A program made the position numbers and the translations under genes. The notes beneath the pieces were generated by a model, which was not told where the DNA came from, ran no database searches, and worked only from the letters and a program-made list of their open reading frames with translations. From a virus, in the IMG/VR virus record IMGVR_UViG_3300032046_000013, positions 1 to 64,000 of that record: DNA of 64,000 nucleotides; one strand, 5' to 3'. Below, piece after piece: positions 230 to 61,120 of this stretch (position 1 is the first letter of the stretch; each line of letters begins with the position of its first letter).

Positions 230-400
230 CTTTTGACACTCTCCCACGGCTGAAGCCGGGAGATTCTTCAGAGGCATGATGCCTCCAAACGGCTCTGCCC
301 GAGCCTCAAAATATTCAAACTTGCATTGAAGTCCCGATCCACCGTGAGTCCACAATTTGGACAGGAATGGACGCGATCCGCCAGCGTCTTGGGAACTCGC
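213..400 (-). ncRNA. TnpB omegaRNA/reRNA overlapping the tnpB 3' end; guide = flank AAGCCGCAAAATAATGGCGA (232-213)
   Basis: Established TnpB architecture; hairpins GGAGGCATCATGCCTCT and CCCGGCTTCAGCCGTGGG precede TCAA. The 5' end is approximate. Confidence 0.7.
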
Positions 401-1473
401 TCGCCGCATTGGGAGCAGATTTGCGAAGTTCCTCGGGGGTTGACTTTGATTACCTCATGCGCAGCTTCCTCCGCTTTCGCCTGAAGCATACCAAGGAACA
501 GACCCCATGACGCATCAGTGATGGACTTCGAGAGTTTCGTTTTGCCATTTTCGATCAGGTTGATGACTTCCAAATCTTCGATGAAAATGCGATTGTAGTT
601 TTGTATGTAATGGTTCGCGGTTTTGTGCAGAAAATCCTCGCGCTGATTATGGATGTGTTCGTGGGTCTTGGCTACGATCAGCTTGGACTTTTGGCGGTTG
701 TTCGAGCCACGCTGCTTGGTCTGGAGCCGCCGTTGACGGTCAGCCAGAAGTTTCTGCGACTTACGAAGAAACCTCGGATTTTCCGTGACCTTCCCGTCGC
801 TGTCCACGGCAAAGTTTTTCAGCCCCACGTCGATCCCGACCTCCCGATTCGTGGGTTTGAACTCGCGCTTCGGCACATCGTCGCACGAAAAATAAGCATA
901 CCATCGGCCAGTCGGCGACCGTTTGATCGTTACCGTTTTGATCTGACCCTGGATCGGACGCGAGAGGTGGAGTTTGAAAACGCCGACACCCCGGATGTTC
1001 AAATTCTTGCCATTGAGCTTCCAGCCCGCGATGTAATCCAGAGTGAATGAATCGTAGCGATCTGCACCTCGATAACGAGGAAATCCTGCCTTTTCCTTAT
1101 GGGCCTTGCATCTGGAAAAGAATAGATTGAACGCCCGATCCACCCGCTTAATCACATCTTGCAGGGTATGGGAATACACGACTTTGAATTCTGGATATTG
1201 GTCTTTCAGTTCCCGTAATTGCCGCATCTGTTCAAAAGCCGTGGTCGAATGCTGGAACTCGCGGTAGTTGATGATCCGCTGTTCCAGAGTCAGATTATAC
1301 AAAGTGCGGCACAACCCAAGCCAACACAGGGCGTTGACTTCGGTCTTCCGACTCAGCCGAGCACGATATTTGAAAGTGCGACGCATGATCTATTCTAATC
1401 CAATCTACCCCTCGGCTCAAGCCAAGGGCCTGGAATCTCTTCTGTTATAGTATAGACCTTCTGTCCATGCTTG
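233..1473 (-). mobile_element. IS200/IS605-family tnpB-only (IS1341-like) element
   Basis: tnpB ORF; right-end hairpin ending GGGAGAGTG-TCAA at 233; left-end hairpin CCCCTCGGCTCAAGCCAAGGG at 1408-1428; no tnpA in the window. The left boundary is inferred from GCTTGA|CAAG. Confidence 0.8.
268..1386 (-). CDS. tnpB: RNA-guided endonuclease TnpB (372 aa)
   Basis: N-terminal MRRTFKYR...CRTLYN; GFPRYR; RuvC-I GIDVGLK, RuvC-II IFIEDL, zinc ribbon CSQC/CPNC, RuvC-III DRDFNAS. All three catalytic acids are present. Confidence 0.96.
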   Translation of the reverse strand: MRRTFKYRARLSRKTEVNALCWLGLCRTLYNLTLEQRIINYREFQHSTTAFEQMRQLRELKDQYPEFKVVYSHTLQDVIKRVDRAFNLFFSRCKAHKEKAGFPRYRGADRYDSFTLDYIAGWKLNGKNLNIRGVGVFKLHLSRPIQGQIKTVTIKRSPTGRWYAYFSCDDVPKREFKPTNREVGIDVGLKNFAVDSDGKVTENPRFLRKSQKLLADRQRRLQTKQRGSNNRQKSKLIVAKTHEHIHNQREDFLHKTANHYIQNYNRIFIEDLEVINLIENGKTKLSKSITDASWGLFLGMLQAKAEEAAHEVIKVNPRGTSQICSQCGERVPKTLADRVHSCPNCGLTVDRDFNASLNILRLGQSRLEASCL

Positions 1474-1477
1474 TCAA
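1449..1477 (-). promoter_or_regulatory. Sigma70-type promoter for tnpB
   Basis: TTGACA (1477-1472), 17-nt spacer, TATACT (1454-1449), about 60 nt upstream of the tnpB ATG. Confidence 0.7.
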
Positions 1478-1484
1478 GCACTTT

Positions 1485-2813
1485 TTAACTCCCAAAAAAT
1501 TGAGTCGTCTGGTATAGGGGGTCTCCGGGAAGGATAAAACCCGGATCAGTTGGGCCAATCGGGGGAACCATTCCGTTGTGCGTGTGCGCCAAATACCGAG
1601 CCAAAAAACTGGCCTTTACCAATGGCACTCCGGCTCCGACCATCAGGGACGTGGTGATAATCACTGGACCAGTGATCGTCCACTGGCCCACCTGGGTCTG
1701 CCTAGCTCCGATAATCGTCTCGTTCTGATCGCCCATGAAAACGGCTTGGGATATGCCTCCAGCCAGACCGCCCGTCAAAGCAACTGTGGCTCCGCCAAGA
1801 AGCAATGCGCCTCCAGCTTGAATCTTGATGTTCCCACCCGCGACTTCCATGACATTTCCCGCGATGGTCACGTCCAGGCTTCCGCCCGCCGCCTGGATGA
1901 TGTCCCTGATCGCCAGTTGCTCGATATTCCCCTGGGATTCGATATGGATGGACCCGCCACTACGCACTGAGACATTGCCCTGGGCCGAGACCACATTCAC
2001 ATCTCCCTCGTCCGTGATCTCGATGAGATTCCCGTGCCGATCCTGAATCCGGCACGATTTTCTGACCGTCAAATTCCAGGTCAGAGCCTGGCAGTCGAAT
2101 ATCCCATCAATGATCTGGTGCAGATCTTTCGCATTATATCGAACCTCATTGCCCTGCTGATCCACTCGGCGTTCCACGGCTCCGCCGATCAGACGTTCCC
2201 GGAAAAACATGACCTGACCAGTTAGTGTATCTCGGACCATTTTCACATTCGGTGTGTATTCGTCGCTGAGTATCGGTCCGTAAATGCACTCGAACCCCCG
2301 AGCCTTAACAATCAACCGTCCATACTTATCCCACAACACCCGCGCTCCAGAATAGTATTGAGGAGCCGCTGAAGCCGAGGGACCCAGGATGTCGTTGTCC
2401 TCGATGCTCGTCTGATTGCACGTATCCGAACTCTGGATCAGGAACTCTCCAGGTTGGAGATTGGGAATTTCCTGGCGCGTGGTGAATAGCTGATCCAGGG
2501 AATGAGGCAAAAAGGAGACGATCACCGGCAGGTTGTTCTCGCGGAATCCCACGAGACAGATCGCGCCTTTTTCGGGCAGACCTCCGGCGAACATCGAATT
2601 CCCGACCGAAGCAAAGCAGATCGGAACCTCGATCTGCTGGCCGATCCGATCCCCGATGGTCACCATGACTTTCCCGGTGTAAATCCGGTTCCCTGCCTCG
2701 TCCAGGGTGTCCGTCCCGTCTTCGTTTTTTACGTAAGAATAGTCCTGGACTTTTCCCAGACAGAATCGGGAACCGAAACTTTTGAACCAGAAATCTGGCA
2801 TGAACGTGCTCAT
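1485..2813 (-). CDS. Baseplate central spike (gpV/gp5-like)
   Basis: N-terminal OB-fold-like segment (GGLPEKGAICLVGF), short beta-repeats, and C-terminal HTH metal-binding tip (LAHTHNG). Start moved to 2813 (ATGA overlap with the upstream stop). Confidence 0.7.
   Translation of the reverse strand: MSTFMPDFWFKSFGSRFCLGKVQDYSYVKNEDGTDTLDEAGNRIYTGKVMVTIGDRIGQQIEVPICFASVGNSMFAGGLPEKGAICLVGFRENNLPVIVSFLPHSLDQLFTTRQEIPNLQPGEFLIQSSDTCNQTSIEDNDILGPSASAAPQYYSGARVLWDKYGRLIVKARGFECIYGPILSDEYTPNVKMVRDTLTGQVMFFRERLIGGAVERRVDQQGNEVRYNAKDLHQIIDGIFDCQALTWNLTVRKSCRIQDRHGNLIEITDEGDVNVVSAQGNVSVRSGGSIHIESQGNIEQLAIRDIIQAAGGSLDVTIAGNVMEVAGGNIKIQAGGALLLGGATVALTGGLAGGISQAVFMGDQNETIIGARQTQVGQWTITGPVIITTSLMVGAGVPLVKASFLARYLAHTHNGMVPPIGPTDPGFILPGDPLYQTTQFFGS

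Positions 2814-19097: not shown

Positions 19098-19101
<4 letters not shown>
18418..19101 (-). CDS. GT-A fold glycosyltransferase-like protein
   Basis: AYAHKIGADF, YEKMQIY, YIDCDALV (DxD); located within the sugar cluster. Confidence 0.7.
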
Positions 19102-21637
<2,536 letters not shown>

Positions 21638-21641
<4 letters not shown>

Positions 21642-26253: not shown

Positions 26254-27538
26254 AAATAACTTGGCCCGGAAACCCGCTCCGTTTACGGGGCGGGAGGAAG
26301 GGCCACTCCTTTCCAGGTTCGCCAACTATTGTAAGTTCGGAACCTGCAATCAGTCGGTTTTGCACTTTGGGTTAATCTCTGACCATCCACAATCCGATGC
26401 AGACTGATGCGTTGGCCCATCGTCCCGCCTACATATACAGTTCCGTATCGAGGATGCTCGATCAGGGAGCCACGCTTGAATCCCAAACTCCGGGTTCCGC
26501 CGTAGAGTTTTCTAATCCCGCCCTGGGCTGGTTGGAGCACATGAAGTTGCCGCCGGTGGAATCTCAGCGGAGCCATGCACAGAAGTTCCGTGTTGTCCGG
26601 TTTTATATGTCCGCCTGTCCAAGAGTTGGCGAGCACCCAGGAGTCAACGCAGTGGGCGGAGAACACTTCATCCAACTTTCCACCCGTCTTTTTCAGCCCA
26701 GCTTCGTCTCGTAATTCTCTCGTGTCGTAGCCCTGTTTTTTGTCCACCGGAGCCAGCTTGCTCAGTTCGGTATAGAACCAGGCTTTGCCGACTTCCAACG
26801 GCGAAAATGAGACATCCCACTTCCGTTTGCCTTTCGTCCGGGCCTTAATGTCCTCGACTACGAAGTGAGAGACCGGGAACAATTTCGACAATCCCTGCGC
26901 GATGCGAAGTTTAGCCTGCCACCGAGCGCGAGTCGAAGGTGGTAATGATCCTTTCGTCCGGTTAAATCGCGGTTGACGACAAGGCGTGTTCCGATTCCGC
27001 CGTGTCCTTCGTATCTCCCGCCGAGTTCTTACCGCACCCTTCACCCAGTCGACGGCCTGGGTCTGGATATTCAGATATGTATGTGCTTCCGACTTCACCG
27101 TGAACCCCTCGCGCTTGCTCCCCGGATCAATCCCCACGGCAACTTCCTGGACTTCCCGGCCTGACGGCTCGACATTCAGCCGAACACAAAACACTCCTTT
27201 GCTGAAAAACGGTGTGGCTTTTCCGTCCTTGATCCACCGTCTAGCCCTTGACGGAGTGGTGGGCATCAAAGGCTTCTGCTGGCTATCCACTACTGGAACG
27301 AACATGATAAGTCTCCCTTCGGAGTTTCTACGGCCCTTCGCGGCTGACGGTCGAAGAGGTTGCAAACTAGGGCGGCATTCGCAACGTCCTGCGGGCTACC
27401 ACGCCCAAAACCGTTCAGTTGGCTTCAATCGACTGTTTCCAATCTTGCCCACGCTAGTCTCCCGTTTGCTCTTTTGGCTTTCAAGTTGGTAGCCCTACTC
27501 GCCAAAAGCCCCTTCCCTTTAGGGGAGGGGTGGTTTAC
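26254..27538 (-). mobile_element. IS200/IS605-family isrB element 1
   Basis: 5' end GTAAACCACCCCTCCCTAAAGGGAAGGGGC hairpin; 3' hairpin CCCGCCCCGTAAACGGAGCGGG; isrB ORF; no tnpA. Confidence 0.85.
26283..27305 (-). CDS. isrB: IsrB RNA-guided nickase (HNH-less IscB relative, 340 aa)
   Basis: PLMP motif, RuvC-I GIDPGSK, Arg-rich bridge helix RREIRRTRRNR, RuvC-II VVEDI, RuvC-III AHCVDS; no HNH. Confidence 0.88.
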   Translation of the reverse strand: MFVPVVDSQQKPLMPTTPSRARRWIKDGKATPFFSKGVFCVRLNVEPSGREVQEVAVGIDPGSKREGFTVKSEAHTYLNIQTQAVDWVKGAVRTRREIRRTRRNRNTPCRQPRFNRTKGSLPPSTRARWQAKLRIAQGLSKLFPVSHFVVEDIKARTKGKRKWDVSFSPLEVGKAWFYTELSKLAPVDKKQGYDTRELRDEAGLKKTGGKLDEVFSAHCVDSWVLANSWTGGHIKPDNTELLCMAPLRFHRRQLHVLQPAQGGIRKLYGGTRSLGFKRGSLIEHPRYGTVYVGGTMGQRISLHRIVDGQRLTQSAKPTDCRFRTYNSWRTWKGVALPPAP

Positions 27539-27558
27539 TTATAATGTCCCTCTATACC
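27306..27558 (-). ncRNA. omegaRNA of isrB element 1 (5' guide from flank ~27558-27539)
   Basis: About 230 nt non-coding region between the left end and the PLMP start; established IscB/IsrB layout. Confidence 0.75.
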
Positions 27559-27855
27559 CCAGACTACCAGACCACCGAGAAGTGTCGCTAGGGTCAATAG
27601 GATCGGCACCACAATCCATAAACTGCGTCGGGTTTCCCGGAAAGTCGGACACGGCGGATCGTGATGGATGTTTTCTTGCGCAATGTGCGCATGTAACCGC
27701 TCCTCGACCCGGATTACCGCATTATTGCTATCGATCATTGCCTGATGGGATGATTCCAATTTTGCATCAAACTGATCCATCCGATTGGATTGGCGTTGCT
27801 CCACCTGGTCGAGTTTGGCTTCCAACCGCGTAGCCAGTTCTTCGAGTTTGGTCAC
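27535..27855 (-). CDS. Coiled-coil protein with one C-terminal TM helix (holin/XhlA-like)
   Basis: Heptad N-terminus plus LWIVVPILLTLATLLGGLVVW; GTG start overlaps the upstream stop. Confidence 0.55.
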   Translation of the reverse strand: MTKLEELATRLEAKLDQVEQRQSNRMDQFDAKLESSHQAMIDSNNAVIRVEERLHAHIAQENIHHDPPCPTFRETRRSLWIVVPILLTLATLLGGLVVWGIEGHYK

Positions 27856-28277
27856 GGCCTTCCTTTCAAAACGGGCTTCTGTCGGGACCTCAACCAATCC
27901 AGGGTCTCCTGCAATTTCGGTCTGACGTTCTCCGGTTTCCAACTGAGAACCCGAATTTCAACTTTATCCTCGGCGTCACACAGATGATCCGCCACTACCT
28001 GATGTTCCATGATTACCGCACATGCGGGTCTCGTTAATCTTTCTCTGAGACTTTGGTATTTTCCCAGATTCTGAATCTTCTGCGTGATCGGACACCTGGG
28101 ACATTTTACACCCGCAATCCGGGTTTCCCGGTATTGGACACAAAGAGCACAACCATATCCATACCACGACTGGGCCAAACATTGCTCGGTAGCGCGAATC
28201 TGAACCAGCAGTTCCTCGTCTGGGGATAACTTGGGGGGGGTCTGCCGGGAATTTAGCAATGATAAATAATCTTCCAT
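27852..28277 (-). CDS. Cys-rich hypothetical protein (141 aa)
   Basis: CALC, CPRCP, HLC; real start MEDYL at 28277. Confidence 0.55.
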   Translation of the reverse strand: MEDYLSLLNSRQTPPKLSPDEELLVQIRATEQCLAQSWYGYGCALCVQYRETRIAGVKCPRCPITQKIQNLGKYQSLRERLTRPACAVIMEHQVVADHLCDAEDKVEIRVLSWKPENVRPKLQETLDWLRSRQKPVLKGRP

Positions 28278-29589
28278 AGAAAAATCGGCGAGGGAACCCG
28301 CTCCATTCACGGGGCGGGAGGAATCGCCGCCTCCTTTCCGAGTCTTGTGATCCAATGTCCGCAGGCCCAAGCCAACTTCCGGGTTGACTGCCTGCGGCCC
28401 CGTTGATCGTAGTAGCGGTAGCCACCGCGATATTCGCCGCACAACCGACCCTGATTCCCGTCCGGGCGGCCTACCAGCAGTCCTTTCCGCAGTCCGAACA
28501 CCGTGCCCTGGGAATATCGGGCGCGGATTCCCCCTGGGGCTGGCTGGGTATCATGCAACTGCCGCCGCACTGGACGATACGTGTCGTCCACCACGATCAT
28601 TCTTCCTGGCTCAATCCGCGAACCTTCGCCCGCTTCACAAGCTAAGGCCAGAGCATCCGAGCAATGAGCCTCGAACCGATCCGCATGTTTGTCCGCAATC
28701 TTCCGATAGCCGTATTGGAGCCGCAAGTCCTTCGTATCATAGCCCGCAAATTCATGCAGTTCAGCATGGGCCTCTATAAATTCCCGGATACGAGCCTTTC
28801 CGATCTCGACCGTGGAGAAGTTCGCACCCCACCGTTTATGCGCATGGTCAAACCGCACGTCCTCTAATCCCACGGACTGAATCGGATAGCAGGAAAAAAA
28901 CTTACGCAACATCTTCAACCGGGAGCCGACAATCATCGCCTGGGACGGGGCCAAAAATCCTGCGCGACTTCGGTTGTCGAACCGCTGGGGCCGTCTCCGA
29001 CAATTACGGAACCTCCGCGCTCTTCGCAAATGCCGCCGTGCTTCCAACTTCTTCACCAATAACTTCTTGCTCGGCAAGTCCAACTTCACGGCCAAGTTGT
29101 TTTCCGTCCCGCACACCACGGCATAGCCCTCGAACTTCGTTCCGTGGTCCACCCCCAGCGTTGTTACCAGAGTCTCGTGTCGCGTCTCGACCAACATCTG
29201 AATCCCCATCTCGTTGAACCTGCTCCACACGGGTTTCGCTACTCTGGCTCGCATCAGTTTCCTCGCCTTGGCAGGCGTCATGGGAGTCAATGGATGACCA
29301 CCCTTGCTCACAACCCACACCGAATGGTTGGCCAGTTTAACGCCGACATGCGGCCCGCGCTGGCCTCGCGGTAATCTCTCCTCGGGGTTGCGATCTGGGC
29401 TTAGCGAGCGATCTCGCATGGCATTCAGCGGTTCTGCCGAAGCGGGCACAACTGGAGAAGCATTGTGCCGTTCTTGAAGTAGTCCTGATCGCGTCTGCTG
29501 ACTCCTCATCGTTTTCTCAGCCCCCTAGTCAACCCTTGCGTTGCAACCGCCGTCACAAGCCCGCTCCCTTCAGGGGGCGGGTGGTTGAC
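28278..29589 (-). mobile_element. IS200/IS605-family isrB element 2
   Basis: 5' end GTCAACCACCCGCCCCCTGAAGGGAGCGGGC; 3' hairpin CCCGCCCCGTGAATGGAGCGGG nearly identical to element 1. Confidence 0.85.
28307..29320 (-). CDS. isrB: IsrB RNA-guided nickase, divergent clade (start uncertain, GTG ~29320)
   Basis: PLTP, GVDHGTK, RRHLRRARRFR, GLEDVRF, AHCSDAL, RRQLH; no HNH. The first ~60 aa of the track ORF lie in the omegaRNA region. Confidence 0.82.
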   Translation of the reverse strand: MWVVSKGGHPLTPMTPAKARKLMRARVAKPVWSRFNEMGIQMLVETRHETLVTTLGVDHGTKFEGYAVVCGTENNLAVKLDLPSKKLLVKKLEARRHLRRARRFRNCRRRPQRFDNRSRAGFLAPSQAMIVGSRLKMLRKFFSCYPIQSVGLEDVRFDHAHKRWGANFSTVEIGKARIREFIEAHAELHEFAGYDTKDLRLQYGYRKIADKHADRFEAHCSDALALACEAGEGSRIEPGRMIVVDDTYRPVRRQLHDTQPAPGGIRARYSQGTVFGLRKGLLVGRPDGNQGRLCGEYRGGYRYYDQRGRRQSTRKLAWACGHWITRLGKEAAIPPAP

Positions 29590-31377: not shown

Positions 31378-31506
31378 GGTTTTATCCTCCTCCTCCACAA
31401 AGCGACTCAGGGACCTTAGACTCCTGAGAGTTTCCGAGAGTCCGAGCGAGCACATTCAATTTGCTTTCGGTAGCAAATTCTAGGGATATTTTTGCTGAAC
31501 GAATCA

Positions 31507-32358
31507 TTAAGACATGACTCCTTCAAAATACGATTGATATCCTGGAATTAAGCCGATCACCCTGAAAATCCTGAACGGCAATCTCTGGCTCTTGAGTCCG
31601 ATAGGCTGTGGCGGTGTCGCCTTTTTCCATCCTTCAATGGCCTGATCCCATGATTGTCGTAATTGGGAAGCCAAAGCCTGGTATCGGGGTCCCCGATCAA
31701 TGCTCAAGCTATGGCCGTCGGTGTAGCTCATGGCATTCGCTATTTCCATCCGAGCGCGGCTTTCCAGGGCATAGATCAGGCCCCCGGTCGTTATCAGGTC
31801 CTCCGGCACGGTATCAAAACTCAGGGGCCGGTATTGCGGACCGCGAATCACGATATGATCCAAGGCGTTGGCCAGACAGGTCATCAGGGTGTCGGTCGGC
31901 CATTGAAACACAGGCTCATCCAGCCGATACCAACTCACCAGATCGTCCATTAGTCGGATGCGCAACTGTGTGATGTAATACTGCAGCATCGTGATCTCGC
32001 CGATCTCGATCACGCCTCCGATCAGTATTTTCAGGTTCCGGCCCTGATAAGTCAGATCACCCGTGAATTCGATTCGATACAGGCCGAACTCCATGAAGGA
32101 CGGAAGAAAACTGATGCTGTAGCGACCAGTTCCCAGATGTTCAAGAATTACTGACCCGCCTTCGGCCAGGGTTCCGCTTACCAGTTGGAGATTCAGAACG
32201 ACTTCGCCCTCGCGGAGGACCCGGGCGCGAGGGTTATCCACGTCCGCGAGATTGGATTGCGGATCACGGAAGCTAACCCGGATTGAAATCAGGGCTTGCT
32301 TCTTCTGCTCCCGCACCTCATTGGGTAGGGTTGCCCCGAACTCGAAGACTCGGGCCAC
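31507..32358 (-). CDS. Head-tail adaptor-like protein with Ig-like N-terminal domain
   Basis: VSFRDPQSNLADVD...GTGRYSI (Ig-like); helical C-terminus LRIRLMD...YTDGHSLSIDR; downstream of the MCP. Confidence 0.55.
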   Translation of the reverse strand: MARVFEFGATLPNEVREQKKQALISIRVSFRDPQSNLADVDNPRARVLREGEVVLNLQLVSGTLAEGGSVILEHLGTGRYSISFLPSFMEFGLYRIEFTGDLTYQGRNLKILIGGVIEIGEITMLQYYITQLRIRLMDDLVSWYRLDEPVFQWPTDTLMTCLANALDHIVIRGPQYRPLSFDTVPEDLITTGGLIYALESRARMEIANAMSYTDGHSLSIDRGPRYQALASQLRQSWDQAIEGWKKATPPQPIGLKSQRLPFRIFRVIGLIPGYQSYFEGVMS

Positions 32359-32366: not shown

Positions 32367-32849
32367 CTATCGAGCACCGGACCCGATCTGGGTAGCACGG
32401 TCTTCTTCCTCAGCTTGCCTCTTCACCTCTTCCAACCGAATGTCATATTCATTATCGACCGTCGGGTCTGCGAACTCGTTCATCTCTTTACCGCGTTGCC
32501 GTATCACCCCGGCTGGACTGGAAACCGGATTCCCGGGAACCGGCTCGCCCACTTCCAACTCGACCAAGAACTTGCGTTCGATGAAATCGCGGATCGCCCG
32601 GGACTTCAATAGTTGCTCATCCGTGTAGTAGGCCCCGAGGTCTTTGGTCTCGTGCGGTTCCAGTGTCTCGAAACTCACCATCTGGCCCAGGGCGTTCTGG
32701 GTGCCGAGGTCACCGAGGAACAACCGGGTGTCGGTCATGTTCTTGAACCGCCGCCGCCCCGTGGTGCTGGCCTTCTCGGGTTGAGTATCGAATAACTTTT
32801 TCGGTGTCCCGGTAATCCCCTCGTTTCGGTCGCCTGCTTGCTCGCTCAT
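32367..32849 (-). CDS. Hypothetical capsid-proximal protein (160 aa)
   Basis: Start MSEQAG with GGAGG RBS and ATGA overlap; FKNMT..L.L...L.P...DL pattern shared with the upstream gene. Confidence 0.6.
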   Translation of the reverse strand: MSEQAGDRNEGITGTPKKLFDTQPEKASTTGRRRFKNMTDTRLFLGDLGTQNALGQMVSFETLEPHETKDLGAYYTDEQLLKSRAIRDFIERKFLVELEVGEPVPGNPVSSPAGVIRQRGKEMNEFADPTVDNEYDIRLEEVKRQAEEEDRATQIGSGAR

Positions 32850-33397
32850 TTCATCCCTCCTGTTTTTCTGCGTCCCCTTCCGGGAACGGTTTCCGCATCG
32901 GTGCGGCTCACCCCGAATAGTGCCGTCGATGACGGCGGTTCGGGAATCTCTGGTTCTGGCAAAGGAACTGGTGGTTCTGCTGGATTTGATGTTGACACTC
33001 TCCCAAGAGGTATGGTGCCTCCTTGATTGCTTGGCCCATAACCATCGGTCGGCGGTCGATGTGGCGGAGACACTGACTGAGCGACCATACACAGAGCCAA
33101 TGCCTTGTCCAAATCGGTGAATCGCCGCAGTTCTGCCGGTGTCCAATTTTGGAGATCAATCCATCCGTTCGGACTGAGACTGATCTTTTCCCGAGACGGT
33201 TTGACACTCCCCACGGCTAAAGCCGGGAGATTCTTCAGAGGCATGATGCCTCCAAACGGCTCTGCCCGAGCCTCAAGGCGCAGGGCGTTGCCCTCGGTAT
33301 CTGAGCGGCGATTCCGGTCAAGCCCTGGTGGCGAGTTCAGAACCAACTTCGCCACCGTCACGTTGGTAAAAATTGTGCCTTTATCCAGATCAACCAT
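32846..33397 (-). CDS. Hypothetical capsid-proximal protein carrying an in-frame IS right-end insertion
   Basis: First gene after the MCP; EARAEPFGGIMPLKNLPALAVGSVK is encoded by tnpB-derived DNA. Confidence 0.6.
   Translation of the reverse strand: MVDLDKGTIFTNVTVAKLVLNSPPGLDRNRRSDTEGNALRLEARAEPFGGIMPLKNLPALAVGSVKPSREKISLSPNGWIDLQNWTPAELRRFTDLDKALALCMVAQSVSPPHRPPTDGYGPSNQGGTIPLGRVSTSNPAEPPVPLPEPEIPEPPSSTALFGVSRTDAETVPGRGRRKTGGMK
33201..33276 (-). ncRNA. Stand-alone copy of the TnpB omegaRNA 3' scaffold/right end (guide ACCGTCTCGGGAAAAGATCA, 33200-33181)
   Basis: Matches 233-309 at 75 of 77 positions (one substitution, one 1-nt deletion); ends in TCAA. Confidence 0.8.
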
Positions 33398-33462
33398 CGA
33401 AAGGGAGGGGCGGGGTCTCACACCGCCGCCCGCTCCCGTTCCTTTCGTGTCCTGATCACCGA

Positions 33463-34404
33463 TTAGGCGATGATGCTATGGGTCATCTTGGCCACGCCGT
33501 TGGCGCAGGTGATGGCCAAGCCGATCAGTTCGTAGCCCACGAGACCCAGGCGCAGATTCTTCGGATCATCCGCCGGGATCACGTCCACGTCTTTACGGAT
33601 CGGCATCCATCCGCAGAACTTCGGAGTCGCCAGGACAAAGACTCGGCCCGCAGTGATCTGGTCCGACACGTAGTAGTCGGCTCCCCAGTGGGAACCCAGG
33701 TAGCCAGATTCCCGGACTTCCTGCATTCCGACCTGGTCCAGGTCCTGGAAAGTCCAACGCCGGATGCCTTGGGTGCCGTAGGGACTCATCAGAACTGCCG
33801 CTGGCACGAGCCGGTGCCGTTCCACCTCGGTAAAGAGCCGAGCCAGATGGTCCCGGTCCATGTAGGTGCTACTGGTGATCGCCGTGTTGTTGATCGTCGA
33901 GGCGGTATTCAAGGCACCGAACCCGATGAGGTCCTCCCGGAGTTCCATCCCCTCGATCAGCCGGTCCTTGGCACGGTCCAAGGCCCGGAAACGCCGGGTG
34001 TAGAGTTCCCGGTAGGGAATCTGCGGAGTCGCCACGATCTCGAACGGTTCGACCTCTATGCGGGCACCCTTCATCTCGACCATCCGGTTGGTCCCGAATC
34101 GTCCGACCTTGACCGCCGGAACGTCCGGCAAGTCCTTGTCGTAGATCAGGGGCACGCCGTCCGGCATCTGCTCGATCACCACGAACTTCCGAAAGATGCC
34201 CTTGTAGTCGAGTTTGGTGCGAACCGGGTTGGCCATGTTCGCTGCGATCTTCCGCAGTCCCATCTCCGACTGCATGACCCGGGACAGCGCGGCCTCTTTC
34301 TGCATCAGCCGCTGGGCCTGTTGAACTCGGCCCTGGTGGGTCGAGTAATCGGGATGATACGACCGCCGATTCACGGTAGTTACGGGGGCACTTTGAGTTT
34401 TCAT
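33463..34404 (-). CDS. Major capsid protein (HK97/encapsulin-like fold, 313 aa)
   Basis: GLRKIAANMANPVRTKLDYKGIFRK, GVPLIYDKD, FEIVATPQI, G.HWGADYYVS, GLVGYELIGLAI; strongly biased codons; follows protease-scaffold-decoration. Confidence 0.88.
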   Translation of the reverse strand: MKTQSAPVTTVNRRSYHPDYSTHQGRVQQAQRLMQKEAALSRVMQSEMGLRKIAANMANPVRTKLDYKGIFRKFVVIEQMPDGVPLIYDKDLPDVPAVKVGRFGTNRMVEMKGARIEVEPFEIVATPQIPYRELYTRRFRALDRAKDRLIEGMELREDLIGFGALNTASTINNTAITSSTYMDRDHLARLFTEVERHRLVPAAVLMSPYGTQGIRRWTFQDLDQVGMQEVRESGYLGSHWGADYYVSDQITAGRVFVLATPKFCGWMPIRKDVDVIPADDPKNLRLGLVGYELIGLAITCANGVAKMTHSIIA

Positions 34405-37980: not shown

Positions 37981-38219
37981 CAGAATTCCCGCAGAGCTTC
38001 GGTCAACAAGTCATCTGCACGGTGCGTTCCCGCACTCCGAATTCGGTTCAGCACCGAGGCTAGAAGTTGAGCCAGTTCCTGGCGTTCATCCTGGGTCGGG
38101 GCCACGGCCAGCCGGTTGTAAATTTCGGTCTGGAGCGTGCGCAGGGCTTCGACTGATGGAGTTTCTTCCCCGCTAAGGTCTGTCCAGGTTCGCCAAAGAG
38201 TCGCAAAATCTTGAGCCAT
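37980..38219 (-). CDS. Small helical hypothetical protein
   Basis: Coupled to the protease by a TGATG overlap. Confidence 0.5.
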   Translation of the reverse strand: MAQDFATLWRTWTDLSGEETPSVEALRTLQTEIYNRLAVAPTQDERQELAQLLASVLNRIRSAGTHRADDLLTEALREF

Positions 38220-38249
38220 CACAAGAGATTCGTTTTGACGAATCAAATT

Positions 38250-38445
38250 TGTTTCATTGAGGTTAAAAATCGTATGAAAAAGTTTAAGGCCTTATGCCCG
38301 TTTTGGACACTTTTTGCGCATTTTAGTCCAGTTTGGGGAACTTTGGCAGATCGGACAAAAACTTTATTTGTTAGCTAGATGAAGCACTTACGACCAATTT
38401 GGGCTACTTTGGCCCACTTTGGCACAGAAAAAGCATAGTTTGGAG
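38250..38445. promoter_or_regulatory. AT-rich divergent control region; possible sigma54-like site TGGCAC-N7-GC at 38420-38435
   Basis: Lies at the strand switch; low GC; ACTTTGGC occurs three times; GG-N10-GC spacing with an imperfect -12. Confidence 0.35.
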
Positions 38446-38484
38446 GTATGAAACTCGATCACAATGGTCACTGGATGTGGCCCG

Positions 38485-38557
38485 ACCCCACGGCTCAAGC
38501 CAGGGGCTTTCTCGAAGGATTCTGTAAGGTTTCACGGGAAACATGTAAGCCAGATTA
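38485..38557 (-). mobile_element. Orphan IS605-type end (left-end-like hairpin)
   Basis: 38485-38507 matches the tnpB left-end hairpin 1407-1429 at 21 of 23 nt. Confidence 0.55.
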
Positions 38558-38756
38558 CGAAAGAAGCGTAATCGATGATGAAGCACGAAGATCAAACCTG
38601 TAGAGTCTGTGGCTGGACCTCCGGGGACTTCCGGCAGGCCGATCTGTGCCTGCCTTGTGCGGAGACCCAGAGACGGCCCCAGGCTATCCCAGAGCCACGA
38701 AAGCCCCGGCCCCAGGACATCCGGTTGAGGCTCCAAACCTCGTTGGTCGGTGCCCC

Positions 38757-39344: not shown

Positions 39345-39578
39345 ATGCAACTCGATAAGAACCATCTCAAGGAGATCGAACGACACCTGATGGTGCATCT
39401 CGATCTGGGAATCACGATTCCGGTGCTCGACGGCAAAGGCGAGGACACTGGCGTGGTGGTCTACGTCGGAACTCCAGTCTTGGGTTTGATCCGGGGCACT
39501 CGGGATATGATGACATTTGTGGCTCGGCACCTGACTCTGGACTTCCAAACCAATCCAAAAGGAGATACCCATGACTGA
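39345..39578 (+). CDS. Hypothetical protein (77 aa)
   Basis: AGGAAG RBS; overlaps the next start. Confidence 0.5.
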
Positions 39579-40485
39579 CGAAAAACCGATCATTCCCGTC
39601 CATCAATGGACTCACGACGGCGACAAAGTGCTCTTAATCAAGTGCATCAACGCTGACGGCACCAGTGGCCCAAAAAACGAATTCATCTGGCCTAAATCCG
39701 GTCCAGTTAAAAGTCCCCAGTGGGACGGGAAGCCGACCTGCGATGGTGGTGGTTTATTCGGTTGGCCGTGGGGAATCGGAATAGGCAGTGGAAAGGACCC
39801 AGATTATCAGGGAATCTGGATCGTGTGGGCAACTGACCCAAACAGGATTATCGTGGTTGATAATGAAAAGACGAAGGCCCCGGATGGAGAAGTGCTTTAC
39901 TATGGGGAATGGGTCGGAGCTTTTCGGATGGTGCTGCAAGGGCAGATTGCGTGGATTCAGCAATCATCAAGGGGGGCCGCAAGTGCCACGGGTGGGCAGG
40001 GGGCCGCAAGTGCCACGGGTTGGCGGGGGGCCGCAAGTGCCACGAGTTGGCAGGGGGCCGCAAGTGCCACGGGTTGGCAGGGGGCCGCAAGTGCCACGGG
40101 TTGGCAGGGGGCCGCAAGTGCCACGGGTAGGCAGGGGGCCGCAAGTGCCACGGGTTGGCAGGGGGCCGCAAGTGCCACGGGTAGGCAGGGGGCCGCAAGT
40201 GCCACGGGTTGGCAGGGGGCCGCAAGTGCCACGGGTGAGCAGGGAATCGCCACCATCACCGGAGACGAAGGCACAATCGAGGTTGGCTTTGGCGGTATTG
40301 CAGCGGTCTGTGCGAAAGTTGTAATCTGGAAAGTTCATAAAGATGCCGTGCTGATTCAACGATGGAAAGATTTCCGGAACCATTACCAAACGGCAGTGCT
40401 CTATCCCAAAAAACTTCGGCTAAAAACTGGACGGGTAGTCAAGGTAGTTAAGGGAAAAATCCAGAAGAAGAATTCTCATGGCTGA
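39571..40485 (+). CDS. Phage repeat protein with 10 x GAASATGxQ
   Basis: N-terminal F.WP.SG.V..P.W...CxGGLxGWPWG domain followed by 9-aa repeats; AGGAG RBS. Confidence 0.8.
39973..40242 (+). repeat. 27-bp coding tandem repeat, 10 copies
   Basis: Unit ggggccgcaagtgccacgggttggcag; variation is confined to the last three codons. Confidence 0.95.
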
Positions 40486-42925: not shown

Positions 42926-43091
42926 TTGGGAACTCGATGCGCTGGAACCCCGGATTTTGGCCGACTTGATAAATGACGAGATTGAAGACCTGCATAATGA
43001 GCAAGTGTGGGAGGCTGCGATCTCGAAAGAAACGGGCTATCGGAAGGAACTGCACAATGCGGCCCGGATACTGGCCAAGAGGAGTAAGTAA
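42816..43091 (+). pseudogene. C-terminal fragment of the same TopoVI-A/DUF2399-like protein
   Basis: RLALNMDQV...PPPNPAK.TDSRY..Y...YG..SWELDALEP. Confidence 0.6.
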
Positions 43092-43092
43092 T

Positions 43093-43983
43093 ATGTCCTC
43101 GGTGATCCAAAAGTTATGCGCTGACCAACTGGTGACTCCCCCGGCTTTCGTAGCGACCGCGACTCAGTATGAGGTCGTGACGGGTTCCGTCGCTTATGGT
43201 ATGGCGGACGAATCCTCGGATTGGGACATCTATGGATTTTGTATCCCATTCAAGGAAATGATCTTTCCCCACTTGCGGGGCGAAATACTGGGCTTCGGTC
43301 ATCAGATTCAGCGGTTCGAGCAATGGCAAAAGCATCGTGTGGAGACCCCGAAGCACCAGTATGATCTCCAAATCTATTCCATCATCAAATACTTCCAGTT
43401 GTGCATGGAGAACAATCCAAACATGATCGACACTCTGTTTGTGCCACAGCGGTGCATCCTCCACTCGACCAAGATCGGGAACATGGTGCGGGAGGCTCGG
43501 CGGTCATTCCTTCATCGCGGGTGCTGGCACAAATTCCGGGGCTACGCTTTTTCCCAGTTGCACAAGGCTCAGCAACAGGAGAGGGAAGGCAAGCGCAAGG
43601 ACGACATTGAGCAATTCGGGTGGGATCGGAAATTTCTAAGCCATGTAGTTCGACTAATCAATGAGGTTGAACAGATTCTGGCCGAGGGCGATCTGGACTT
43701 GGAGCGGAACCGCCAGATGGTTGCCGCCGTCCGATCCGGGGAATGGTCCCTGACCCAAGTTCAAGAATGGTTTAATGTTAAGGAAAAAACAACGGAAGAA
43801 CTATACGCTCAATCGAAGTTGCCCTGGGGACCGCCCGAAGATCAGATCAGGCAGTTATTGTTCGCCTGCCTAGAAGAACATTTCGGCTCCCTGGATCAGG
43901 TAATTGTCCAACAAGATCGAGCAATCTCGGCCTTGCGAAAAATCGAAAACATCGCGCAGGAAACCCTGAGAATCCGAGAATAG
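43093..43983 (+). CDS. Pol-beta-superfamily nucleotidyltransferase (YcgL/RlaP-like)
   Basis: GSVAYGMADESSDWDIYG (GS..DxD), NNPNMIDTLF, F.GYA.SQL, K.LSHVVRL. Confidence 0.88.
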   Translation: MSSVIQKLCADQLVTPPAFVATATQYEVVTGSVAYGMADESSDWDIYGFCIPFKEMIFPHLRGEILGFGHQIQRFEQWQKHRVETPKHQYDLQIYSIIKYFQLCMENNPNMIDTLFVPQRCILHSTKIGNMVREARRSFLHRGCWHKFRGYAFSQLHKAQQQEREGKRKDDIEQFGWDRKFLSHVVRLINEVEQILAEGDLDLERNRQMVAAVRSGEWSLTQVQEWFNVKEKTTEELYAQSKLPWGPPEDQIRQLLFACLEEHFGSLDQVIVQQDRAISALRKIENIAQETLRIRE

Positions 43984-45550: not shown

Positions 45551-45551
45551 C

Positions 45552-51700: not shown

Positions 51701-53343
51701 ATCTGCTCGATCAACTGGTTATAATCTGGTTTCCTGGCCCCTTTCTTACCCCCAGGCTGACGGTCCGCCATCGGACGGCCCGAGCTGGAATTGGGCCGGC
51801 AGCCGAAAATATCGCCTCCGCCGGCGTCCATCCCCTCATCCTCTGCCGTGCTCGCGGTCTGGTCAGCCACTGCAACCGCATGTTTGCATTTCCGGCCATG
51901 CTCACCGGCGGGACAGGAACAGGCCCATCGCCGCAACTCGCCGTCCATTCCGAGAAACCGGACCTCATAGACGTTGCCGGAATCGCTGTGCACCGCCCAG
52001 GTTTCGTTTTCGCCGTTTTTTTCGATTTTCACCACGTGCTCGAAACCTGGGGGAGTAACCGAGAATTTGAGACTGGCCTGGAGTTTCTTTCCGCCCCGGG
52101 CCAGCAGTTGTTCAATCGCACTCTGGGGATCGTCGCCAAGTTTATCGGTCTTGGTGTCGCCGCCCCACCGATTGGGTTGGGAGATTTTCACCGGCCTCAG
52201 CACATGGGTCGGTCCATATTCGTAATATCCGACCGAACCATCGCCCTGGACTATCGCCACTTCTCCGTCAGGCATCTGGTAGGCTCCATGAACCGTAGCT
52301 TGTTTGCGTTGGCCCATGTTGATCGTGCCTGATCCGACTCGCTTGCCGCCCTGCCTCACCAATTCCTGTATGGCTTTGCGCGGACCACCGAAATCATCAA
52401 TCGGAGTATCGGTATGTTGCATCGTCTTGGCATCATAATATCCGACTGATCCGTCACCGCTTACTCTGGCGAGTTCCCCGTTGGGCATCAGATACATCCC
52501 GTAAGTCGAGCCTTGCTTGCTCCAGGCAGTCCGCAGAATGCGCGTGGCCTCTTTCGCTTCCTCGGCTTCCGGTTCGGGTTTCTTCGACTTCTCGCTCGGA
52601 CTCGGTTTGGAATCCGAATTCTCCCCAAACGCTTCCGCCGTGGCCTCATCGATCAGTTTCTGACCATCCAGACCCTGGGAATCTGCGACCTCCACCAGTT
52701 TCTCCTGATGACTCTGCTCATCCAGGATGATCTCGTCCACGAGGCCCTCGGCCTCCCCGTTTTCATCCGAGGTCAGGGACTCCGCGAGTTCCTGATATTC
52801 GCCTGGAGCCTTCACTTCATCGACCATCGCATCCTCAATCAGGTCTTTCAATTCGGACTCCCCGGGTTCCGTTTCCTCGGTTTCCGGTGTCCGTTCCTCT
52901 TCCGCATGTTTCCGCATTTTCTTCTCTCCTTGTTTCGTCCCATAACCCGCGCTTTCCAGGACATCCAGAGCCGCCCGTGAACCGATGCTCCGCAAGATCA
53001 GCGTATAAACTCCCGCATTCTCCGTATCGTAATTCAACTGGGCTTCCAGAATCGGCACGGCCCGATCTCCAAATTGCACGACAGTCCGATATGCGCCCGA
53101 TTTCAGGCTGGCATCCGGGCTTTCAATAACTTCACGCAATAAGTCGGTGATCGTTTCCTCAATATCGGGACGGCGAGATCGTTTGGGCACATCATATCCT
53201 TCACGTCGCGCCATGTCATAAGCAATAGCCGCCGCTTGTTCCTGGGATTTGCCTTCGCCAATCAATTTTTTGATCTTTTGGCTGATCCACGCTTGAGCCT
53301 CGTCCGTGAGTTTGGCCCCGATCTTACGCACTTCGTTTCTCAT
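48727..53343 (-). CDS. Giant acidic multi-module protein (1538 aa), putative internal head polyprotein
   Basis: QAAAIAY module, ferritin-like DE..H segment, two GDGSVGYY modules, SWIM finger CSCPAGEHGRKCKH, SH3-like module, and two paralogous C-terminal modules, separated by basic linkers. Confidence 0.75.
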   Translation of the reverse strand: MRNEVRKIGAKLTDEAQAWISQKIKKLIGEGKSQEQAAAIAYDMARREGYDVPKRSRRPDIEETITDLLREVIESPDASLKSGAYRTVVQFGDRAVPILEAQLNYDTENAGVYTLILRSIGSRAALDVLESAGYGTKQGEKKMRKHAEEERTPETEETEPGESELKDLIEDAMVDEVKAPGEYQELAESLTSDENGEAEGLVDEIILDEQSHQEKLVEVADSQGLDGQKLIDEATAEAFGENSDSKPSPSEKSKKPEPEAEEAKEATRILRTAWSKQGSTYGMYLMPNGELARVSGDGSVGYYDAKTMQHTDTPIDDFGGPRKAIQELVRQGGKRVGSGTINMGQRKQATVHGAYQMPDGEVAIVQGDGSVGYYEYGPTHVLRPVKISQPNRWGGDTKTDKLGDDPQSAIEQLLARGGKKLQASLKFSVTPPGFEHVVKIEKNGENETWAVHSDSGNVYEVRFLGMDGELRRWACSCPAGEHGRKCKHAVAVADQTASTAEDEGMDAGGGDIFGCRPNSSSGRPMADRQPGGKKGARKPDYNQLIEQIRVGDVFQGSGFKSFRITNITDTGSRADIPEARWDSFVATVEYLDEELQPTGRKGTWALGAIGVNLGDGNLEKVEGGKMGMRKHGAKLEEGFDFSLGLGAEFELEDIDAEFEDSRGRNDLIEENVNFILDREFGQGTYHAEFAPDGINTEVDEVDPNQGWVNFTSSLYFGISDQSGNQVAIAEGGALGMADNSGEGGTLSHITIRITEVTGHEAEGMRRRLQAMQSDRQVFDRYFEKNAHQVWQALERERRGDMEYLREALKRGDQTPEGIMATQGIGGLFRAASTHVTGITLRDTAEDLFRDQVLAEIIPTKKEADHYTKHFQSIPSKVLAQSIGRLEQREAAKSLTITEQGELNLLREEYKRRGQDPEKNLVDDRTMKSPDLKGGGEVKPRKEGRRKVGAKFGPLATLLTQKSDRGQTDVIQNIQRILDGEDLRGFEPDELEMVENLVNSVAAEATGEVAQEIQEVRDSIDTYSGGGNEVEGQRKTAVNPFRLGDEVKDQSGRIGRVIEVNPPYNGIEGVVIEWDEDQEREEYLSSESDWNELEKMGQRKTATLPDDYQGPIKGGFSISTTDQFEIEQNAEERGITLDDAAWDQLNQDVALLEENTEAWLKTVVNWAQNEGHDHDGDLSGSFDATPESPLYNAIIESSEEGIGEPLRFGAMPPYDLGAYADEGKLKEGVSGIGQQLLDVTLNFFAVEPDTEGEPQAPEKTSRRKVGGTPDIRNLAYQAGLHAAQDAWMFESADDILKQMEQDLDKMGPGDDAESLVQHWQQSWESTDQFASHLRKVVEQSEGEGEDMVEDHLEISEGFWEGVDAGLGERGINVWKLARQLVPERPKGKTPRKPQAPEKTSRRKIGAGGGAYDVGVQAAEAGIAVSADQVREEMTGQLRYANHSEDLVQAWLEYLGRNADLDTYSQQVMDLAGDLVAGEEGFEEQLDRYYDLMEQFHEGLFQGLSKQGIEVYQIAKEVWEQSGKPQTPKGKVKQSARFTQ

Positions 53344-57800: not shown

Positions 57801-57951
57801 ACCGGGATTCGCCTTCCAAGGGCACGGCCTCAGTGTCTATCAGATCGCCGTCATCATCGTAAGTATCGGTGATCTCGGCCTTGACCTGCACCAGATGGTC
57901 ACACTGTTCGCACGGCCACCGGGCATAGTCGGTTCGCGTTTCAGTTCGCAC
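54751..57951 (-). CDS. Acidic multi-module protein (1066 aa)
   Basis: CxxC pair, VRISDH module, IRQEGDSWVLYS..KRLGT module, ELRLFIEND module, CPTCQGEG/CPECGGTG finger; linkers RKTA, AKTA, KKLS, QKVA, PKQG. Confidence 0.75.
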   Translation of the reverse strand: MRTETRTDYARWPCEQCDHLVQVKAEITDTYDDDGDLIDTEAVPLEGESRLCEQCQEREEWHEWKDSVEDQIKDAADAGGWELSNEYGAMSSQSDYLTFRKDGTDEEEKYLDVRISDHARTSHEHEPKDFNIVKDSPESDSLEQVLSILKQGGKKRDITSPSYLKPRTPAGFHTREDGTLEPSPIFDGKPLKLKEPTMPTLAQTEHYRMTFPNLVKAGWSQMPGFVQASFRDARSFCLAHGGRLVTEGQKVIIADFPTLRSVREAAKFLQSECYVQADEIDITPIQAKEAMSDFPLPTQIEQVIETESQPTDTGAEAFVRKYLERGKAWFMALLERLKVMGETVLAQEIEDTLYLPMFAPVLAMRKTARQMYWVAVCQPRRGQLQVKVVDDPKKFHGTNIAGTTQSTDMFEVAKVWAGRLARENGLTEFEVDTQIEKSIESIAPAKTAVIRQEGDSWVLYSHDGKKRLGTHDSKADAERQERAIQSHKGSKMKKLSVWDEELGLPVLGMDYNEWQSDLPPDPDKDEYGAQELRLFIENDADLYHQQFMPIIRNIQRRLKNQTYNHALAPKLWMYLVENGAKKYAKEFGSPDQPWHKMFPQAVRQAVAQELADDYLEQIKGGEYDPLTPAPNMPEVKGTSQKPASIDPWAVPKQGADPMFEIPETDPSGAIHLHRDSEQEAKLSAYQWVAWAKAMYGNEPYQLEHNQPKQYFKVMFPGVEVKYWDYGPPTDLQNQMAQLGTLATSSQKVAQDKDAPSELSKPRGNWKGKKIDKAYQKKQIEDWSQRQEQEWAEFKKRKAKVVAVPPGRGSEFSSIELCPTCQGEGQIPGGRESGCPECGGTGMIKHIDFSEDEVLPKQGTLEELEAEPMDEPQEPEDGDLVIQSTGHLGGKTEVWEQGGKKVIEQTPDGYYEVQVGSDEFLFGEGNHFEDIDDAIKACMEQQQFWPNVWILDDHGGMTLTTVASKDVRASIDEVLPKRGGEETLPTVWGPDERDATIYYQTSFSPGLRRTETSPEEHPETEIHSIRLVDEDGQEIPLTEEDERKLEDEIRNHEENPPTREDMARGDY

Positions 57952-59882: not shown

Positions 59883-60534
59883 CGCTATCTCCTTCATCAT
59901 CAAAAATTTCGCGCAATCGCTCCAACCGCGCTTCGTGCGTTGATCCCTCGGCCAGCCCGAACTCATCCAGGTCGGGATGCACCCTGTCCGTGTAGCTGTT
60001 CCTGAACGTCTGTTCTTCCATGGTGATATCCGAGACGTTGCGTCGAAGTTCCGCATCTTCGCCTGCGGATTCCCGCACATCGGACTGTCCTCGATCATGG
60101 GACGAATCATACGGTGCTCGGGTAAAATCGATGCCGGGAATGGCACCGGAGAAATCGTCCAAGCCGAGGTCTATCTCGTTTTCGTTGAATTCCGGGACTT
60201 CCCCAAACTGCGGATTTTCCCCTCGGGGTATGGGTTGGCCCCGGAATTCCCGTTCTCGGGGTTCAGAATCACGGCGAGGATCAGGGGTTGGCGCGGCTTG
60301 GACGGGTATCCCTTGGCTCGCACCCCAAGTCACAAACCCCGATTGGGGTCCTGCGAGATCAGCCCGAGTAATGCCTTGAAGCAAATCATCCGCTGATATT
60401 CCTGGCTCCGCACCCCACCGTTGTTCGATGATCTGACTTCCGACCTTGATCGTCCGCCGAGGTCCCAAGAATCGGAAACCTTCTCGGGGGTCCTTGCCAC
60501 CGCTACCCTCGCCATCAAATAATTTCCTCATCAC
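59875..60534 (-). CDS. Acidic low-complexity protein (219 aa)
   Basis: AAGGAG RBS; overlaps the next start by 8 nt. Confidence 0.65.
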   Translation of the reverse strand: MMRKLFDGEGSGGKDPREGFRFLGPRRTIKVGSQIIEQRWGAEPGISADDLLQGITRADLAGPQSGFVTWGASQGIPVQAAPTPDPRRDSEPREREFRGQPIPRGENPQFGEVPEFNENEIDLGLDDFSGAIPGIDFTRAPYDSSHDRGQSDVRESAGEDAELRRNVSDITMEEQTFRNSYTDRVHPDLDEFGLAEGSTHEARLERLREIFDDEGDSDV

Positions 60535-60543
60535 CCGCTCCTT

Positions 60544-60915
60544 TTATATGCCGATCAGCCGTTCATGCTCCGGCTTTTCCAGATAATGCCGGATCGCCGA
60601 GATCGAGGTCCGAGCCAGTTCGATAGCTCCTTCGTAGGTGGCGTGATCTATCTGATCGCCACTCAGCAAGTGCGGCAACTTCATGTTGATCTGCCACTCC
60701 TGAGTTCGGATACACGCCTGAAGCCATTCCTCGAACTCGGATTTCAGGCCGACTCGATTCTGCTGAGCCGCTTGCAAAAACATTTCGTAGAGGTCCACGA
60801 TATGCTGTTCGTCGTCCCAGTCGTCTGGCCGCAGTTTGCCCGCGAATAGAGTTCGCTTCTCCGCAGGCAGGCCCATGAAGGCCCGGATTTCATCGGGCGA
60901 GACTAGACTGACCAT
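60544..60915 (-). CDS. Hypothetical protein (123 aa)
   Basis: GGAGG RBS before MVSLVS. Confidence 0.6.
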   Translation of the reverse strand: MVSLVSPDEIRAFMGLPAEKRTLFAGKLRPDDWDDEQHIVDLYEMFLQAAQQNRVGLKSEFEEWLQACIRTQEWQINMKLPHLLSGDQIDHATYEGAIELARTSISAIRHYLEKPEHERLIGI

Positions 60916-60934
60916 CGGCTTTTTACCTCCGAAC

Positions 60935-61120
60935 GAAGTGTCCCGACTCGATCTGTGATACGCTCCCCCGCATGAATGCGGGGGCATCTCGGATCAGACA
61001 TGGGCCTCACCCGATACGCTTGTCGGTTCTACGATCCGGCTTACTTTTCTGTAACGAAAAGCAGGGGCCGTGATCTCCCCGACCGTCACTTCGGGCGTAA
61101 CCCGCCCTAGTTCGAGAATG
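60935..61120 (-). ncRNA. Orphan TnpB-type omegaRNA/IS right end of a second family (guide AGATCGAGTCGGGACACTTC)
   Basis: Hairpin CCCCCGCATTCATGCGGGGG (60984-60965), then AGCGTA-TCAC ending at 60955; upstream GGGCGGGTTACGCCC hairpin; reads ILELGRVTPEVTVGE like a tnpB tail; no tnpB ORF attached. Confidence 0.6.

Follow-up and report, generated by a model that had tools for sequence, protein, structure and literature searches.

TnpB, IsrB and protein-less element ends in the structural gene region of a tailed phage

Background

The closest described counterparts of the RNA-guided elements reported here are ISDra2, DtIsrB and the standalone omegaRNAs. In ISDra2, the scaffold required for cutting is 116 nucleotides (nt) long, and a pseudoknot pairs positions -5 to -3 with -105 to -103 (PMC10097598). 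DtIsrB requires an NTGA motif adjoining its target (PMC9581776). Standalone omegaRNAs, which lack an effector or transposase, have demonstrated activity in trans (Altae-Tran et al. 2021, as described in PMC10691335). TnpB is established as a homing nuclease for vacant sites (PMC10690162, PMC10055086), and in plasmids it has been shown to act both as a gene drive and as protection against competitors free of the insertion sequence (IS) (bioRxiv 10.1101/2025.02.20.638934). Marker exclusion by phage homing endonucleases is classical (reviewed in PMC13565253). Here, we describe TnpB and IsrB elements, together with protein-less element ends, in the first 64 kb (64,000 nt, hereafter the window) of the 86,227-bp IMG/VR virus record IMGVR_UViG_3300032046_000013. 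The record has a CheckV completeness of about 60% and comes from a tailed sediment phage with no close relative in the collections searched.

A preliminary description of the window had proposed that this phage combines a few OMEGA nucleases with several trans-encoded guides directed at co-infecting relatives. Its observations are largely right and carefully placed; its interpretation exceeds the evidence. Our preferred reading, to which we give a probability of roughly 0.7, is that the phage underwent repeated colonisation by ordinary IS200/IS605 (OMEGA) elements of at least four lineages, now at different stages of decay, and that the protein-less pieces are debris. Of the TnpB1 type there would be a full copy, a right-end remnant of 78 nt and a left end standing alone. 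A TnpB2/TnpA type, found beyond the window, would comprise a tnpB and a tnpA fused to a truncated tnpB. All that survives of a third TnpB type would be the relic of 159 nt at 60955, and the set of colonisers would be completed by two IsrB elements that diverge from each other.

Results

The one intact TnpB that the preliminary description reported in the window is confirmed (tnpB1, 268-1386; Table 1). The protein has both Pfam domains, and its RuvC residues D186, E270 and D352 show no variation across an alignment of 27 proteins (TnpB1 and 26 relatives). It matches 4,546 proteins at E<=1e-30 and is therefore a member of a very large clade, in which its closest match reaches 59% identity. Viral contigs often encode TnpB: a relative is present in at least 486 of the 548 pattern-matched stretches listed. 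Like ISDra2, TnpB1 combines the RuvC triad and a zinc ribbon with hairpins at both ends (243-260 on the right and 1409-1428 on the left, related and on the same strand), a right-end flank as putative guide and a likely pseudoknot about 100 nt upstream of that guide (PMC10097598). It differs from ISDra2 in being at most 59% identical to the other proteins found, in having no tnpA inside the element and in residing in a phage. The intact elements of the window have standard anatomy, in agreement with the earlier statement that the guide is taken from the flank.

In an alignment of the last 170 nt of TnpB1 with ten loci related to it, which came from genomes and viral contigs, three stems are followed by a conserved GTGTCAA. 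Across the 11 loci the covarying stems are paired in 92.9% of 241 cells, compared with 34-49% when the partners are slid, and both sides have changed in 10 of the 22 pairs. RNAalifold predicts an additional long-range helix, in which positions 331-335 (codons of the RuvC-III motif, -103 to -99) pair with the last bases before the guide. This helix is 95.5% paired, with changes on both sides in 0 of 4 pairs, which is compatible with a pseudoknot at -103 to -99 and does not prove one.

To place ends across the record we used two RNA models, R1 for the TnpB1 clade and R2 built from 20 right ends of unrelated tnpB loci, none of them from the phage under study. The E-values of both come from a shortened calibration and are rough. 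The seven best minus-strand R2 matches were the relics at 33201 and 60955, the TnpB2 left end, the hairpin at 38486, both TnpB1 ends and the right end on the tnpA side. These are exactly the ends that had been placed independently or named in the preliminary description, and they thus provide a good internal control. Rfam at gathering thresholds gave no match in the window; a permissive Rfam scan gave only the HEARO-type omegaRNA of IsrB1 in the window and no match in 63.9-86.2 kb.

The piece at 33201-33278 is a protein-less copy of the TnpB1 right end, with 97.4% identity to 232-309 over 78 nt (two differences). R1 scores it at 63.6 bits (E 3.7e-17), close to the 67.3 bits of the native end, and R2 gives E 1.6e-4. 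In two other sediment samples, every contig matching this right end departs from it exactly below 33201 into a discordant flank, with three loose ends in one run and five in the other. Their divergence defines where the element ends and shows the family to be active in the community. The 33201 piece has nothing upstream of -78 and lacks the proposed pseudoknot partner, being about 25 nt short. It sits in frame within an open reading frame (ORF; 32846-33421) just after the capsid gene. The 40 codons that precede it have gene-like usage, at +0.24 per codon in frame versus -0.14 and -0.26 in the other frames. Homologues of this post-capsid ORF were not found, its two matches being itself and a low-complexity sequence, so there is no empty form against which the in-frame insertion could be compared.

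These properties bear on the proposal that the protein-less pieces are kept as extra guides, with which TnpB1 or another nuclease cuts empty sites in co-infecting relatives so that the pieces spread or rivals are excluded. Consistent with it, the 33201 piece matches TnpB1's own right end beside a new flank and lies on the late-gene strand just after the capsid gene, so its transcription is expected. Trans-acting standalone omegaRNAs and plasmid TnpB drive are already published, and the former resemble the 33201 piece, a nuclease-less right end beside a different flank, with a matching effector, TnpB1, in the genome. The published ones are described as evidently mobilised (PMC10691335), whereas the phage pieces have no left end, and the 33201 scaffold of 72-78 nt, truncated and without its likely pseudoknot partner, is below the expected minimum. 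The other pieces fare worse: the relic at 60955 belongs to another TnpB lineage with no partner nuclease in the 86 kb, the one at 38486 is a left-end hairpin without a guide, and 31382 is unsupported. What fits the proposal of trans guides over debris is the match to TnpB1, the different flank and the late-gene strand of 33201; the remaining evidence does not fit it. We therefore regard guide use of the pieces as unlikely overall, and trans use as possible for 33201 alone.

Target-site features were also considered. Within the 86 kb, no guide of an element or relic has a second site at up to two mismatches in 16 nt; the guides match only their own flank, as the standard model predicts, with no sign of cross-targeting. 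Candidates for the adjacent motif are TTAC-like flanks, which precede related left ends, and TTGA, which precedes the orphan piece and occurs in the TnpB1 5' region. The sequence preceding the 33201 piece is not TTAC-like. If the motif of the clade is TTAC-like, even the empty allele at this site may therefore lack it, a further point against guide use; if the motif is TTGA, the empty allele would be cut.

The relic at 60955-61113 has a different origin. A full-length R2 match (60955-61011, 23.1 bits, E 5.4e-4) ends exactly at 60955, and the first 48 nt of the relic share 79% identity with the 3' end of the coding sequence of a tnpB from another viral contig. Over 156 nt its minimum free energy has a z-score of -4.55, with 0 of 200 shuffles folding as well. 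With R1 its scaffold reaches only 11.5 bits (E 0.25), against 67.3 bits for the native TnpB1 end. Both its TCAC end and its scaffold are unlike those of TnpB1 and TnpB2, which leaves it without a partner nuclease in the 86-kb record. An exact-pattern scan for relatives of the scaffold recovered one other phage sequence only, filed twice. Searching with R2, we found no left-end hairpin near either 33201 or 60955. The lack of a left end marks both relics as deletion remnants, not mobilised mini-elements.

At 38486 only an end hairpin is present. R2 matches the hairpin part alone (38486-38506, E 3.2e-3), and by BLAST the piece matches more than 15 TnpB loci, at left as well as right ends. Its context resembles the left ends of TnpB1 and related elements, which identifies it as an IS end and not a guide cassette. 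A small plus-strand ORF (38449-38600) with a GGAGG site runs antisense through this hairpin. It could be asked whether 38486 and 60955 are chance hairpins or terminators rather than transposon ends, given that the E-values are rough, that G+C-rich hairpins are common and that R1 gives 60955 only E 0.25. R2 contains none of this phage's sequence, and yet its seven best matches are all ends placed or named by other means; moreover, by BLAST both pieces match many tnpB loci at their ends, and the 60955 piece agrees in its 5' part with the end of a tnpB coding sequence. A chance origin is accordingly very improbable.

A further candidate named in the preliminary description, 31382-31507 on the minus strand, matched neither R1 nor R2 at E<=10 and belongs to no Pfam family. 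We considered it as a TnpB N-terminus and then as a C-terminus, and dropped it when the best short-peptide tblastn match had E 0.31. The protein-less pieces first described thus stand for 33201 and 60955, reduce to an end hairpin at 38486 and fall away at 31382; the omegaRNA covariance models likewise matched the IsrB1 HEARO, 33201 and 60955, and left 31382 unmatched.

The reported absence of TnpA holds for the window only. Beyond it, at 84.5 kb, the record carries a Y1 TnpA (placed at 84559-85086 or, more narrowly, at 84574-84936), and it also has a second TnpB (TnpB2, 78697-79827). Directly after tnpA lie 80 codons of a TnpB N-terminus (record 84318-84557; HTH_OrfB_IS605, 3e-10), and these run straight into a right end whose identity to that of TnpB2 is 89% over 38 nt. 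This arrangement identifies an IS605 element with a large internal deletion in tnpB. At its ends the TnpA element carries hairpins like those of TnpB2 and unlike those of TnpB1. A promoter pattern of TTGACA, 17 nt and TAnnnT occurs at only three sites in the 86 kb (1449-1477 in the window; 79826-79854 and 78020-78048 in the record). One of the three lies just before tnpB1 and another just before tnpB2, and a near-consensus version accompanies tnpA; the OMEGA elements appear to be driven by host-type promoters.

Both IsrB elements of the preliminary description were recovered, each with an RRXRR match (3.4e-38 and 5.9e-32), no HNH domain and an omegaRNA upstream. IsrB2 aligns over its full length to the IsrB of PDB entry 8DMB (9e-42) without an HNH insert; both RRXRR proteins are IsrB and not IscB. 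The two proteins are 31% identical to each other, and their right ends 80% identical over 65 nt. The HEARO score of IsrB1 is 1.4 bits below the gathering score of 83. The structure predicted for the IsrB2 omegaRNA recurs in the corresponding upstream sequences of three viral relatives, and 18 of its 38 predicted pairs show compensatory changes. The elements resemble DtIsrB (8DMB; PMC9581776) in their size of about 340 amino acids (aa), their PLMP/RRXRR-RuvC layout without HNH and a predicted omegaRNA of about 220-230 nt directly upstream, and the 3' flank of IsrB2 would fit NTGA. They differ in the divergence of the two phage copies, in an IsrB2 omegaRNA far below the Rfam threshold, in the ATGG flank of IsrB1 and in the position of both genes inside a phage structural operon.

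Both IsrB insertions lie between a stop codon and the following ATG. The IsrB1 element (29589-28278) begins 7 nt past the stop codon of the gene before it. The opening bases of the IsrB2 element (27538-26254) complete both the final sense codon and the stop of the gene upstream. A preference for ATG plus a purine would steer those IsrB insertions that can be retained to start codons. In a 237-nt contig from a second sample, 28448 is followed directly by 29205, with no mismatch and with 3 nt common to both sides at the joint. The contig lacks 756 nt (252 codons, 28449-29204) of isrB1 in frame and keeps the omegaRNA and right end; it would represent a protein-less IsrB element arising in nature. 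Together with the truncated tnpB beside tnpA and the relics without left ends, as three independent cases, this deletion points to ongoing decay by deletion.

Between the two co-oriented IsrB elements (27535-28277) are two small genes, one cysteine-rich and the other with a C-terminal hydrophobic stretch. The outer ends of the elements could in principle move these genes as a composite unit.

Several junctions raise the possibility that relics are retained for gene expression, through the GGAGG and ATG in the 33201 copy (resembling a ribosome-binding site and start), stop codons at element ends and promoters in left ends. The public gene call of the post-capsid ORF starts inside the 33201 copy, the sole library protein matching ORF residues 52-183. 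The stop codon supplied by the first bases of the IsrB2 element, the overlap of the 60955-61113 relic with the stop codon of a 38-aa ORF and the consensus promoter adjoining tnpB1 agree with such a use. Any insertion survived by the phage would leave the same features, there is no relative in which to look for conservation, and the coding-looking region upstream of the 33201 copy speaks against a start inside it. We consider retention for expression quite unlikely.

Table 1. Elements, relics and neighbouring genes. Positions are those of the window unless marked as record.
Feature	Position	Strand	Details
TnpB1 flank, putative guide	213-232	-	Identity with the orphan copy ends at 233/33201
TnpB1 right end and omegaRNA scaffold	233-348	-	Terminal motif GTGTCAA at 233; R1 match 233-311, 67.3 bits
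tnpB1	268-1386	-	372 aa, looks intact; OrfB_IS605 7.6e-26; Cas12f1-like TNB (zinc ribbon) 2.4e-22
TnpB1 left end	1387-1477	-	Hairpin 1409-1428 (R2 E 0.063); boundary candidates ~1442 or ~1473
Consensus sigma-70-like promoter beside tnpB1	1449-1477
Baseplate-like gene	1485-2921
IsrB2 right end	26254-26314	-	Abuts ATG of next gene (26253-26251); 3' flank ATGA
isrB2	26283-27305	-	340 aa, no HNH domain; RRXRR 3.4e-38
IsrB2 omegaRNA	27307-27538	-	HEARO 19.8 bits, E 0.053 (451-nt search)
IsrB1 right end	28278-28339	-	Abuts ATG of next gene (28277-28275); 3' flank ATGG
isrB1	28307-29320	-	337 aa, GTG start, no HNH domain; RRXRR 5.9e-32
IsrB1 omegaRNA (HEARO type)	29371-29589	-	Rfam RF02033, 81.6 bits, E 7e-15, model positions 1-211
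Orphan flank, putative guide	33181-33200	-	Differs from TnpB1 flank; unique in record
Protein-less copy of TnpB1 right end	33201-33278	-	Last 72-78 nt; stems A-C and GTGTCAA end
Major head protein ORF	33463-34404	-	phrog_2522, 3.5e-43
Solitary left-end-like piece	38486-38523	-	TTAC flank, 17 nt, TnpB1-type hairpin
Right-end relic of a different TnpB lineage	60955-61113	-	159 nt; ends TCAC; between 38-aa ORF and next gene
TnpB2	record 78697-79827		TNB 2.4e-25
Y1 TnpA	record 84559-85086		2.9e-34

We used the capsid protein to look for relatives of the phage. Among 50,697 phage records it had 229 matches, all below 60% identity, the best being Bacillus phage G at 38.7%. In IMG/VR it matched one viral locus (38%) and in JGI metagenomes two loci, one at 61% on a 1.8-kb contig and the other at 38%. 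No capsid-matched relative in these three collections was close enough for a comparison of insertion sites. The stretch or parts of it are present in three sediment sequencing runs, and none of the listed runs that hold it is an RNA run. Contig joints that skip a whole element or the 33201 piece were not listed in the sediment runs, where contigs only were compared, so that this is not evidence of absence.

Nearly all long ORFs of the window are on the minus strand. A short plus-strand block between structural regions includes a gene (42973-43983) with an RlaP nucleotidyltransferase domain (PF10127, 3.1e-17). Collagen-like triplet repeats with 18- and 27-nt periods occur at 19098-21641 (847-aa ORF) and 39571-40485 (304-aa ORF, weak Collagen Pfam match). 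A 272-nt repeat, 98.9% identical and unrelated to the IS elements, links window 51760-52031 (in a 1538-aa ORF) with record 76534-76805, 24.5 kb away. Another repeat of 69 nt, 88% identical between window 38205-38271 and record 68781-68848, covers the start and upstream region of two minus-strand genes; it includes a 7-bp inverted repeat and looks like a common promoter or operator, not an IS end.

Discussion

Repeated colonisation followed by decay would account for these elements through steps described for their families. Judging from published work, Y1 TnpA would move the elements as single strands, a nuclease with a flank-derived guide would cut or nick element-free copies of the phage, and repair from the filled copy would restore the element, giving retention or gene drive in a multicopy replicon. 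IsrB ends placed before ATG plus A or G resemble the reported NTGA motif, which on anatomy would explain the gene-junction sites; insertions elsewhere would kill the phage. The protein-less pieces would be remnants of internal or one-sided deletions that stay where the parent landed, and any guide activity left in them would be a by-product. For the intact nucleases, a role in retention or drive of the published kind is probable.

The likeness to plasmid gene drive and to phage homing endonucleases is that the nuclease would target the element-free copy of a multicopy replicon, with biased inheritance and possibly the exclusion of related genomes as the outcome. The difference is that the published demonstrations concern plasmids and protein-guided phage endonucleases, whereas in this phage such action would be a prediction. 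The word "phage" occurs 0 times in the plasmid preprint (bioRxiv 10.1101/2025.02.20.638934). Among open-access papers and bioRxiv we found no literature on orphan omegaRNAs used by phages against co-infecting phages.

Several observations weigh against our reading. Homing is something that we infer, because no empty allele was seen. The isrB1 deletion comes from a single contig of depth 2.6, which may be an assembly error. The orphan piece at 33201 keeps all three covarying stems and the terminal motif, in frame in an ORF that looks coding over its first 40 codons, and a 5-nt stretch at -101 to -97 can pair with its terminal bases, an event expected by chance in about one of six windows. With two differences in 78 nt the piece is very young, so decay and selection are indistinguishable. 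The 60955 relic is full-size and strongly structured (z -4.55), and its partner nuclease could lie in the missing part of the genome, the record being about 60% complete; the same TnpB1 protein is also recorded on a 96.6-kb contig.

Conclusions

It is improbable that the cut-down cassettes in the capsid and head-cargo regions serve as cheap extra guides for TnpB1 and for a nuclease from the unsequenced part of the genome or from the host. If they did, and if matching sites were cut in co-infecting relatives without the inserts, this would be an RNA-guided form of marker exclusion, known from phage homing endonucleases, on a scaffold shorter than any shown to function. Were the relics used, a single nuclease would be working in nature with several unlinked guides in virus-virus competition, and there would be a hint that a much shorter TnpB scaffold can work. 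TnpB1 with its native right end versus the 78-nt version is useful test material. As the evidence stands, the locus is a well-resolved example of IS200/IS605 elements settling in a phage structural operon, and the pattern of settling (at stop/start junctions, on the gene strand and with decay by deletion) makes it a useful catalogue entry.

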